Below, one piece after another: positions 54,075 through 55,207 of a DNA stretch of 64,000 nucleotides. Source of the DNA: Oculina patagonica (lineage: Eukaryota); assembly GCF_052425735.1 (NCBI RefSeq), contig NC_135763.1:29326001-29390000 (forward strand), given 5' to 3'. The stretch's first letter is position 1; each line of letters opens with the position of its first letter. Under the pieces are notes generated by a model. The model did not search any database, was not told the DNA's origin, and was given only the letters and a program-made list of their open reading frames with translations. The translations under genes and the position numbers were made by a program.

Positions 54075-55207
54075 ATGTTGTCTGTGCTTATTGTTGTTGC
54101 AGTTCTCTGTATTCCCGCCCTTACAGAAGGTATGAGTGCTTTGATAGTGTGTTTTGTTTCATGACTGAGGTTCTTGCCATTTCTCACGAGTCACTATCGC
54201 TAGAGTATATTCTCTCAACATAAATATTACTTTCGTTATTAGGAGGTCTGCGATTCGAAAGCCTTCAAAGATCGCCTGTGTTAAACTTGCTCAGGAAAAC
54301 GCGTAAACAGTTCAGCTATTTTTTTTAGTAAAGGAGTATTATAAAGAGCCGTTACGCTGTGACGAGTCGATTTTTTACGATTTTTACACTGCCTCCCAAA
54401 AATGCATTAAAGAATATTAAGTTAATCGTCAGTGGAATAAAAAGAAGAATTTGTGTTTTTTTACGGACTAAACGTTAACACTTCATAACATCACACTCTG
54501 TATATATTTTTGGCGATTTTAGATTTTAATATTGTTTATTTATCTGGTTTTATTGGATGTATCACTGAGATTAACAATATTTTTGCGTTTTAAGGGGATT
54601 CACCTACCAAATTTAGTCGCTAAGAAAGCTTTCATTTTGGACTAATAAAGTTCTTTTTTATCTGATATTTACAGAATGCGTTGACGAGTCTCCGCAATGT
54701 CAATATTTCACAGAATATTGTAGCCACTCGGAGATCCAAGCACAGTGCCAGAAGACGTGCGGAGTATGTAAGTAATTGAAAATAAATTTCGCCTTTAAGT
54801 TGCTGTAGGAATTCCTGAAGAGTTTTCAAACTATGCGAGCCTTGTTATATTTAAAATATTCTCAATAAATTCGTACGTTAGCCCGGTCCATTAATCTCTA
54901 ACAGTTATATGACGTGCAAATTCATTAATTATTTTTTTTATTAATTTACTTCATTTCTTTTAAGACAACATTACAAAAAAGGCTGCACGACTTTTAACTT
55001 ATATCCAGCAAAGTTCCAAGAATTTAATATTTAATTTGTCTTGTGAGTAAATACTTAAATGTCATCTGTTTCATTTTTTTAATTGCTTTAGGTGGTGGTG
55101 GTTCAGTTTGTAAGGACGATAACAAATACTGTCCGTTACATGTAAGATACTGCTCATGGCACCCAATTGTGAAGAAGCAGTGCAAGAAGACATGTGAACT
55201 TTGCTAG
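54075..55207 (+). CDS. Secreted 87-aa peptide with two tandem ShKT (ShK toxin-like) domains
   Basis: Exons 54075-54129, 54675-54767 and 55092-55207 give MLSVLIVVAVLCIPALTEE-CVDESPQCQYFTEYCSHSEIQAQCQKTCGVC-GGGSV-CKDDNKYCPLHVRYCSWHPIVKKQCKKTCELC*, with two 6-Cys C..CxKTCxxC motifs. A probable non-coding last exon starts at 55951, with AATAAA at 56016. Confidence 0.9.

Follow-up and report, generated by a model that had tools for sequence, protein, structure and literature searches.

Toxins of the ShK type have reportedly been proposed to derive from protease domains, an idea attributed to Rangaraju and colleagues in 2010, and the domain of the type 1 Kv toxins is released from a propeptide with a dibasic site. 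In its mature form this domain is single and 27–37 amino acids long (PMC6409789), and the dyad of ShK is formed by Lys22 and Tyr23 (PMC6409789; PMC5793123). Secreted peptides consisting of ShKT domains only are well known, like Nematostella ShK-like1 and ShK-like2 (10.1101/2020.05.28.121442) or Cumia ShKL (PMC6409789), and coral antimicrobial peptides are also described as secreted and ShKT-type (PMC12496222). On anthozoan trypsins, single-exon ShK domains are easily gained and lost and their role is called unknown (Babonis et al., 2019, PMC6767649); the accessible part of that paper describes no stand-alone ShKT gene traced to the loss of trypsin exons.

The locus presented here lies in a 64,000-nucleotide stretch of the Oculina patagonica genome (the window; NC_135763.1, positions 29,326,001 to 29,390,000), and positions below are those of the window unless a contig is given. 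The closest system are the anthozoan trypsin-ShK proteases (S1A). With a neighbouring gene of this kind the mini-gene shares promoter, signal exon, phase-1 layout, tandem ShKT domains and UTR exon, whereas it lacks the catalytic domain (His-Asp-Ser) and the Gly-rich linker in front of ShKT-1, and its domain 1 is acidic. The mini-gene descends from a trypsin-ShK protease gene and is a protease no longer. A similar route is described for the short-coding disintegrins of snakes (e.g., jerdostatin), in which a disulfide-rich C-terminal module was freed from a secreted protease and the leader was kept (PMC8678471). The disintegrins belong to another protease class and fold and have a proven target (PMC8678471), whereas the peptide of the mini-gene has a candidate activity only. 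Unlike in the disintegrin case as described there, the parent, the product and a decayed sister of the mini-gene lie no more than 30 kb apart, and the deletion junction can still be recognised.

The peptide shares the six-cysteine spacing, the Pfam family PF01549 and a predicted two-helix fold with ShK and BgK, but it differs from these single-domain toxins in having two domains, in lacking a propeptide, a KR site and the Lys-Tyr dyad, and in its net charge of 0. Its Cys3-Cys4 loops comprise 8 and 9 residues, in contrast to 10 in ShK and BgK. The peptide thus belongs to the ShKT domain family, but its dyad positions and precursor layout are not those of a type 1 Kv toxin. AsK132958, Nematostella ShK-like1/2, Cumia ShKL/multiShKL and nematode ShKT-only proteins (labelled 'ZK673.1-like' in RefSeq), of which none has proven Kv activity, likewise consist of a signal peptide and ShKT domains only, mostly lack the dyad and are lineage-specific. 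The mini-gene has no close sequence relative among them, the best other matches being generic multi-ShKT proteins with 30–56% identity. In the accessible parts of the literature, no parent gene was found to be shown for AsK132958, Nematostella ShK-like1/2, Cumia ShKL or the nematode ShKT-only proteins. Finally, damicornin, AmAMP1, digitiferin and aurelin are, like the peptide of the mini-gene, small, secreted, cysteine-rich and ShK-related, and domain 2 of the mini-gene is cationic and superposes on aurelin; in contrast to these coral and jellyfish peptides, the mini-gene encodes a net-neutral, protease-derived tandem, the likeness being one of description and fold. Damicornin, AmAMP1 and digitiferin were absent among the 10 of 93 protein matches which were looked up by name.

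No report of the mini-gene or of another trypsin-derived ShKT mini-gene was found in the literature covered, most subscription papers lying outside this coverage. The new element is that the event can be followed at the level of single bases, the parent, its product and the failed sister all lying within 30 kb. ShKT peptides that stand alone routinely enter catalogues as candidate toxins, and where they come from can usually not be traced, whereas the origin can be read here base by base. The mini-gene shows one way in which toxin-like peptides can arise, and it is a warning that a match of the type 'signal + ShK' in a survey of coral venoms may be what is left of a protease. As the locus offers a natural free form beside the attached form, it makes the role of the ShK domains on cnidarian trypsins testable.

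Gene model and predicted peptide

The coding sequence of the mini-gene consists of three exons on the forward strand with 264 nt, encoding 87 amino acids in the order signal-like leader, ShKT, GGGSV, ShKT. Exon 1 (54075–54129) contains the ATG and a hydrophobic leader, the predicted signal peptide, and ends with a phase-1 GT donor. Exon 2 (54675–54767) codes for the acidic ShKT-1 (net charge -3), and intron 2 splits the last cysteine codon of this domain into T and GT, just as the initial annotation had described. Exon 3 (55092–55207) comprises the GGGSV linker, ShKT-2 (net charge +4) and the stop codon TAG. It is followed by the non-coding 3′ exon 4 (at least 55951–56021), which has an acceptor and an AATAAA (56016–56021). 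Upstream of exon 1, a TATA-like box (TATAAATA, 54008–54015) marks the proximal promoter inherited from the protease gene.

Both introns are skipped at GT..AG by contigs of X1 and X2, two of the four runs examined. These two belong to one study and are assembled contigs, and X1–X3 are RNA-like runs according to the guess of the tool, none of them being recorded as RNA. Across intron 1, the shorter arm of the bridging contigs measures 49 letters in X1 and 28 in X2. The joint over intron 2 has a shorter arm of 27 letters only (the tool's mark being 31) and is supported by loose ends reading as the end of exon 2. Neither joint was found in the runs X5 and X6, in which the introns are covered by contigs. 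Further loose ends of the RNA show that the stop codon is spliced straight onto position 55951. The protein is identical to the RefSeq entry XP_078374933.1, annotated as 'uncharacterized protein ZK673.1-like' of Oculina patagonica. Contigs and RefSeq entry together establish the spliced double-ShKT peptide that had been predicted from the letters alone. The peptide had also been called invisible to the ORF track, which holds insofar as the list of ORFs with at least 100 amino acids does not contain it, but it was already an annotated protein. For exon 3 (55092–55208) two expressed versions were observed in X1 and X2, one identical to the window and one with 8 differences in 117 bases, which represents another allele or a copy absent from the assembly. 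The mini-gene is real and expressed; it belongs to a known kind, its origin is unusually clear, and its activity is a candidate one only.

Both domains fit the six-cysteine ShK spacing ending with C-x3-C-x2-C; in the ShKT family these cysteines pair as C1-C6, C2-C4 and C3-C5. The expected Pfam ShK family (PF01549) is recovered in the whole protein with 46.8 bits in two stretches, compared to a gathering cut-off of 20.9; by single exon, exon 3 reaches 26.8 bits and exon 2 with its five cysteines gives no match. ShKT exons are common in the genome, since 150 of 150 scored candidates (of 454) lie above the Pfam cut-off. The contrast between an acidic and a basic domain is borne out by net charges of -3 (pI 4.4) for domain 1 and +4 (pI 8.9) for domain 2, while the mature peptide has a net charge of 0. 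Domain 2 contains KY at residues 61–62 and RY at residues 68–69, in front of Cys2 and Cys3, respectively, as well as KK at residues 77–78 and 81–82. No dibasic site was found before or between the domains, which directly follow the leader, in agreement with the initial annotation that a propeptide and a KR site are missing. The leader is probably a signal peptide, judging from its hydropathy (9-residue mean up to 3.7) and its homology to the protease leader, and the peptide is thus probably secreted, as had been proposed. At the junction, the residue before Cys1 has changed from Gly to Glu, by which the cleavage site of the signal peptide may be shifted or weakened.

AlphaFold2 (26 sequences) predicts two separate two-helix domains, with pLDDT values of 82–93 within the domains and a pTM of 0.39. 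In a structure comparison, all five chains with Z of at least 2 were ShK-fold or CRISP entries (Z 2.1–2.6, rmsd 1.3–2.8), and these matches cover domain 2 only. Foldseek gave no match at E<=0.001, its best E being 3.0; such weak scores are expected of 32-residue domains. The search against PDB sequences returned nothing below E 0.06, and a coronavirus protease and a spider toxin among its rows were dismissed as chance matches.

Parent gene, deletion and decayed sister copy

The mini-gene is surrounded by a cluster of chymotrypsin-like proteases with 15 activation-site motifs, each followed by a WPWQ box, in 224 kb; in many of these genes the last part is a Gly-rich linker with a single ShKT exon. 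Behind exon 1 of the mini-gene, a loose RNA end resembles the N-terminus of trypsinogen. It led to a copy of exon 1 at G000:C6:29399097-29399189 (95% DNA identity over 93 bases), 9 kb past the window end, and thereby to the parent, a chymotrypsin-like protease-ShKT-ShKT gene at G000:C6:29399128-29402507 (L039), which is located outside the window about 19 kb downstream of the mini-gene.

The parent consists of signal, three protease, two ShKT and UTR exons, and its catalytic His, Asp and Ser motifs are intact (AAHC, NDIAL, and GDSGG). Contigs of X1–X3 join its exons all the way from the signal exon through the protease exons to the second ShKT exon; at the joints into and between the ShKT exons, the shorter arm has 21 letters only. 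The assembled frame of the parent is broken at a GGC repeat before ShKT-1 (near L039:3057), at which X1–X3 and run X8 carry an indel that keeps the frame. Because of this frame break, neither the signal exon nor the two ShKT domains are included in KAL9970708.1, the partial GenBank model of the parent. The second ShKT domain of the parent has KY and KY at the places of KY and RY in the mini-gene, the same split cysteine codon and the linker GGGPV.

Mini-gene and parent are collinear from the promoter through the signal exon, the introns and the two ShKT exons to the 3′UTR exon, with a single gap. The alignment blocks comprise 53682–54537 (promoter, exon 1 and intron 1; 73% identity), 54547–55023 (intron, ShKT-1 and intron; 75%) and 55030–55515 (ShKT-2 and 3′ flank; 69%), as well as the UTR exon with about 85–86%. 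In the upstream region 49 of 324 aligned bases differ, and the TATA-like box is found at the same place upstream of the mini-gene, the parent and the decayed copy described below. The gap corresponds to 2,140 bases of the parent, which run from intron to intron and contain all three protease exons. The approximate deletion junction is located in intron 1 (54521–54530, forward strand), with parent intron 1 to the left and the parent intron before ShKT-1 to the right, and the alignment blocks end and restart there in both deleted copies. In the parent, the 9-mer AAATTTAAT is confined to the two ends of the gap; the chance of a shared 9-mer between two random 30-base windows of these introns is 0.005 in shuffled windows. 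This suggests, short of proof, a microhomology-mediated deletion. No remnant of protease-coding sequence was found within 45500–57000 by tblastn and blastn. Both introns flanking the deletion are in phase 1, and the signal exon is therefore spliced in frame onto ShKT-1. The deletion also accounts for the missing propeptide.

The coding parts agree with this picture. ShKT-1 is identical to the first ShKT of the parent in 21 of 31 residues and ShKT-2 to the second one in 22 of 32, and each mini-gene domain scores best against the corresponding domain of the parent. In the tree of these small domains, domain 2 groups with domain 2 of the parent (support 95/83); for domain 1, no resolved sister pair with domain 1 of the parent was recovered. 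In Porites harrisoni, KAM7433607.1 has the architecture signal-protease-ShKT-ShKT, with 89% identity to the protease of the parent over 245 amino acids and 51% to the domain pair of the mini-gene. Because the architecture is intact in Porites, the long form is considered ancestral and the deletion derived. Almost certainly, the mini-gene originated as a tandem copy of the neighbouring protease-ShKT-ShKT gene, the protease exons of which were lost in one deletion.

The reverse ancestry, in which protease exons were inserted into a peptide gene, was ruled out, as Porites and Desmophyllum carry the signal plus the protease. A reading of the ShKT exons as alternative 3′ exons of the protease upstream at 42.6–44.9 kb was also rejected, because the mini-gene has its own promoter, ATG exon and splice between exons 1 and 2; the model of the upstream protease, ending without ShKT, counts against it as well. 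In a repetitive cluster with a 98.7% identical 3-kb duplication and a parent that carries an apparent indel error, it might be suspected that the mini-gene is an assembly artefact, or that the spliced contigs stem from exon skipping in the parent. However, mini-gene and parent differ at 15–27% of the non-coding sites, and over 97 bases the contig that connects exon 1 with ShKT-1 differs from exon 2 of the mini-gene at 2 positions only, in a region which is 86% identical to that of the parent. The splice right after the stop codon is moreover specific to the mini-gene, and the junction is common to the second copy, so that an artefact is largely refuted and hardly credible.

This second copy lies about 5 kb upstream of the mini-gene (48800–51990, forward strand) and has the same deletion junction, but it is decayed: its ATG is lost, its ShKT-1 exon is shortened and contains an in-frame stop, and the first cysteine of ShKT-2 is missing. 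DNA searches of the genome revealed only three copies, namely the mini-gene, the decayed copy and the parent. Private non-coding changes in 1,122 columns amount to 92 for the mini-gene, 75 for the decayed copy and 98 for the parent. From these near-equal distances it follows that duplication, deletion and re-duplication were close in time, and that the evidence for the two deleted copies being sisters is their common junction, together with the coding changes they share.

Selection and possible roles of the freed ShKT pair

In exon 3, the private changes of the mini-gene are 2 nonsynonymous and 3 synonymous ones, compared to 9 and 1 in the decayed copy (Fisher p = 0.077, not significant). The dN/dS of the mature region between mini-gene and parent is about 0.7 (dN 0.169, dS 0.246), and since overall dN is below dS, positive selection was discarded as a firm claim. 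Mini-gene and parent differ in 20 amino acids, 7 of which are polarised by Porites. All 7 fall on the side of the mini-gene (sign test p = 0.016), 6 of them in domain 1, which would fit either relaxed constraint or an altered role after release. The charges of domains 1 and 2 are -3/+4 in the mini-gene, +1/+6 in the parent and +1/+5 in Porites. Among the features singled out in the initial annotation, only the acidity of domain 1 looks new.

In neutral simulations, ATG, frame, all 12 cysteines and splice sites were kept with a frequency of 0.022 at a branch length of 0.07 and 0.008 at 0.09, indels being left out of the count and the mini-gene having been chosen for its intactness, which bears on estimates of selection. 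Purifying selection on the surviving copy is moderately supported on this basis. The mini-gene could instead be a young, near-neutral by-product of a strong protease promoter, in which the cysteines are kept only because of the cost of misfolding and which is heading to the fate of its sister. Of the two deleted copies, one is decayed by now, the amino-acid changes gather on the side of the mini-gene with the mature dN/dS near 0.7, and the protein collections are without a short orthologue: the searches returned XP_078374933.1 itself, and in the widest one, with 93 matches, the others are 30–56% identical. This last result points only weakly to a lineage-restricted gene, because few search words are shared between short proteins rich in cysteine. 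Against a by-product it must be considered that the folding cost would end with the loss of the ATG, whereas the ATG, the frame, the splice sites and all 12 cysteines have outlasted about 0.08 changes per site, and that the neutral chance of such intact survival is about 1–2%, indels uncounted. In contigs of a second organism label, the region of the ShKT-2 exon has 3–5 differences in 167 bases versus 37 in about 610 bases upstream, which is suggestive only. A by-product is thus rather unlikely.

The venom, antimicrobial or signalling role suggested in the initial annotation is a candidate one. In alignments to the ShK sequences of the PDB, the place of H-S-M-K-Y in ShK is taken by H-S-E-I-Q (domain 1) and by H-P-I-V-K (domain 2); a Lys-Tyr dyad between Cys3 and Cys4 is missing in both domains, and the loop of domain 1 has no Lys at all. 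The caution of the initial annotation that Kv activity is not assured is justified by this. The dyad is described as neither necessary nor sufficient for channel activity (PMC6409789), and its absence therefore only lowers the likelihood of channel activity. The KY and RY pairs are present outside Cys3-Cys4, as had been noted, but they are no adaptation of a toxin, since the parent has KY and KY there. As a toxin signature they were rejected, being inherited from the protease tail, and a basic-aromatic pair before Cys3 occurs in 32 of 81 protease-borne ShKT domains.

A venom peptide newly recruited from the protease tail, blocking Kv1-type or other ion channels of prey, is quite improbable. 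The ShK fold speaks for it, as do Lys77 and Lys78 near Trp72 in domain 2, the report that a protease-borne ShKT domain without dyad can act on channels (MMP23, cited in PMC6409789) and the expression of ShK-type genes in coral cnidocytes (PMC8162421). However, besides the missing dyad, positive charge was lost, the promoter is that of a protease, and among the closest folds is AsK132958, a dyad-less ShK homologue reported to be inactive on Kv channels and shrimp (PMC5793123). A classical Kv1 toxin in particular seems unlikely. The loss of positive charge since the release would be the wrong direction for a pore blocker and equally for a cationic antimicrobial peptide. The latter possibility, a coral ShKT-type antimicrobial peptide in mucus or gut whose cationic domain 2 attacks bacterial surfaces, is in line with damicornin, AmAMP1 and digitiferin, for which ShK domains and a release from granular cells are reported (PMC12496222), with aurelin as one of the five structural matches (Z 2.5, rmsd 1.4, 34 aligned residues) and with the charge of +4 of domain 2. 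It is nevertheless unlikely in this form: the mature peptide carries no net charge, and the tail of the parent is more cationic (-3/+4 versus +1/+6), opposite to the expected selection, and there is no cleavage site between the domains. It partly overlaps with the explanation preferred here, which permits a role in gut defence.

According to this preferred explanation, a protease-derived, secreted two-domain peptide would serve as a surface-binding or defence module in the gut and not as an injected potassium-channel toxin, which as a whole is somewhat more plausible than not. The sequence shows the duplication and the 2,140-base intron-to-intron deletion, which placed the signal exon in frame with ShKT-1, as well as a second deleted copy in a decayed state, and the contigs of the one study show the splicing of the message. 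The surviving copy would be kept by purifying selection, and expression in zymogen gland cells would follow from the inherited promoter and from the published expression of anthozoan trypsins. In the last and weakest step, the freed ShKT pair would retain the binding role of the protease tail towards surfaces of prey, mucus or microbes in the gut, and domain 1 would have drifted towards acidity once it was free.

Secretion into the gut together with the proteases, from gland cells, is likely, as the protease promoter was kept and anthozoan trypsins are found in gland cells; the promoter points to digestive gland cells rather than to stinging cells or neurons. Anthozoan trypsins are reported from gland cells of the pharynx and the mesenteries (10.1101/645952), in Nematostella from those of the mesenteries, and the role of their ShK domains is stated to be unknown (10.1101/645952; PMC6767649). 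A trypsin-rich gland cell type is described in a stony coral (PMC8162421), and ShKT-bearing astacins mostly originate from barrier and digestive epithelia, for which a protective role was suggested (PMC9848320). The literature search found no cell atlas and no ShK paper for O. patagonica. That the freed pair acts as a free surface-binding or defence module in the gut is possible but somewhat doubtful, and that it was selected for a new job, either gut defence or one directed at prey, after the microhomology-flanked deletion can be proposed tentatively at best. If the latter were true, the locus would be a direct genomic demonstration of the route from protease to ShK peptide and a natural reagent for learning what the ShK tails on cnidarian trypsins do.

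Neighbouring genes in the protease cluster

Four proteases on the forward strand upstream of the mini-gene (10650–12676, 25352–27490, 29169–31301, and 42812–44943) have no ShKT exon behind them, whereas most cluster members downstream of the mini-gene have one. Therefore, ShKT tails were gained or lost within the cluster. The segments 24781–27767 and 28599–31558 hold copies of a chymotrypsin-like gene which are 98.7% identical and represent either a very recent duplication or an uncollapsed haplotype. These copies have GAMSLRYG where their neighbours have GAVSWGHG, so that a conserved Trp is replaced, and they are possibly altered in specificity or inactive.

On the reverse strand, a truncated protease gene (57940–57500) consists of a signal exon and the start of a protease exon with a stop. 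Its signal exon is 97% like that of an intact neighbour past the window end, and its 3′ flank repeats 60263–60639. The last two exons of the protease P0114, coding for a Gly linker and a single ShKT domain, are located at 60911–60810 and 61771–61740 on the reverse strand, the 5′ part of the gene lying past the window end. On another contig of O. patagonica, the protease-ShKT models P0097 and P0104 have repeated Cys-rich N-terminal modules and a leader like that of the parent, and their last protease exon is 73–78% identical to that of the parent.

Between protease genes, a self-inverted MITE-like element of about 470 bases with 86% identical arms is present in two copies (27682–28152 and 32553–32863). 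The regions 35177–35724 and 46526–47140 are GC-rich with open frames on both strands and are probably transposon remnants.
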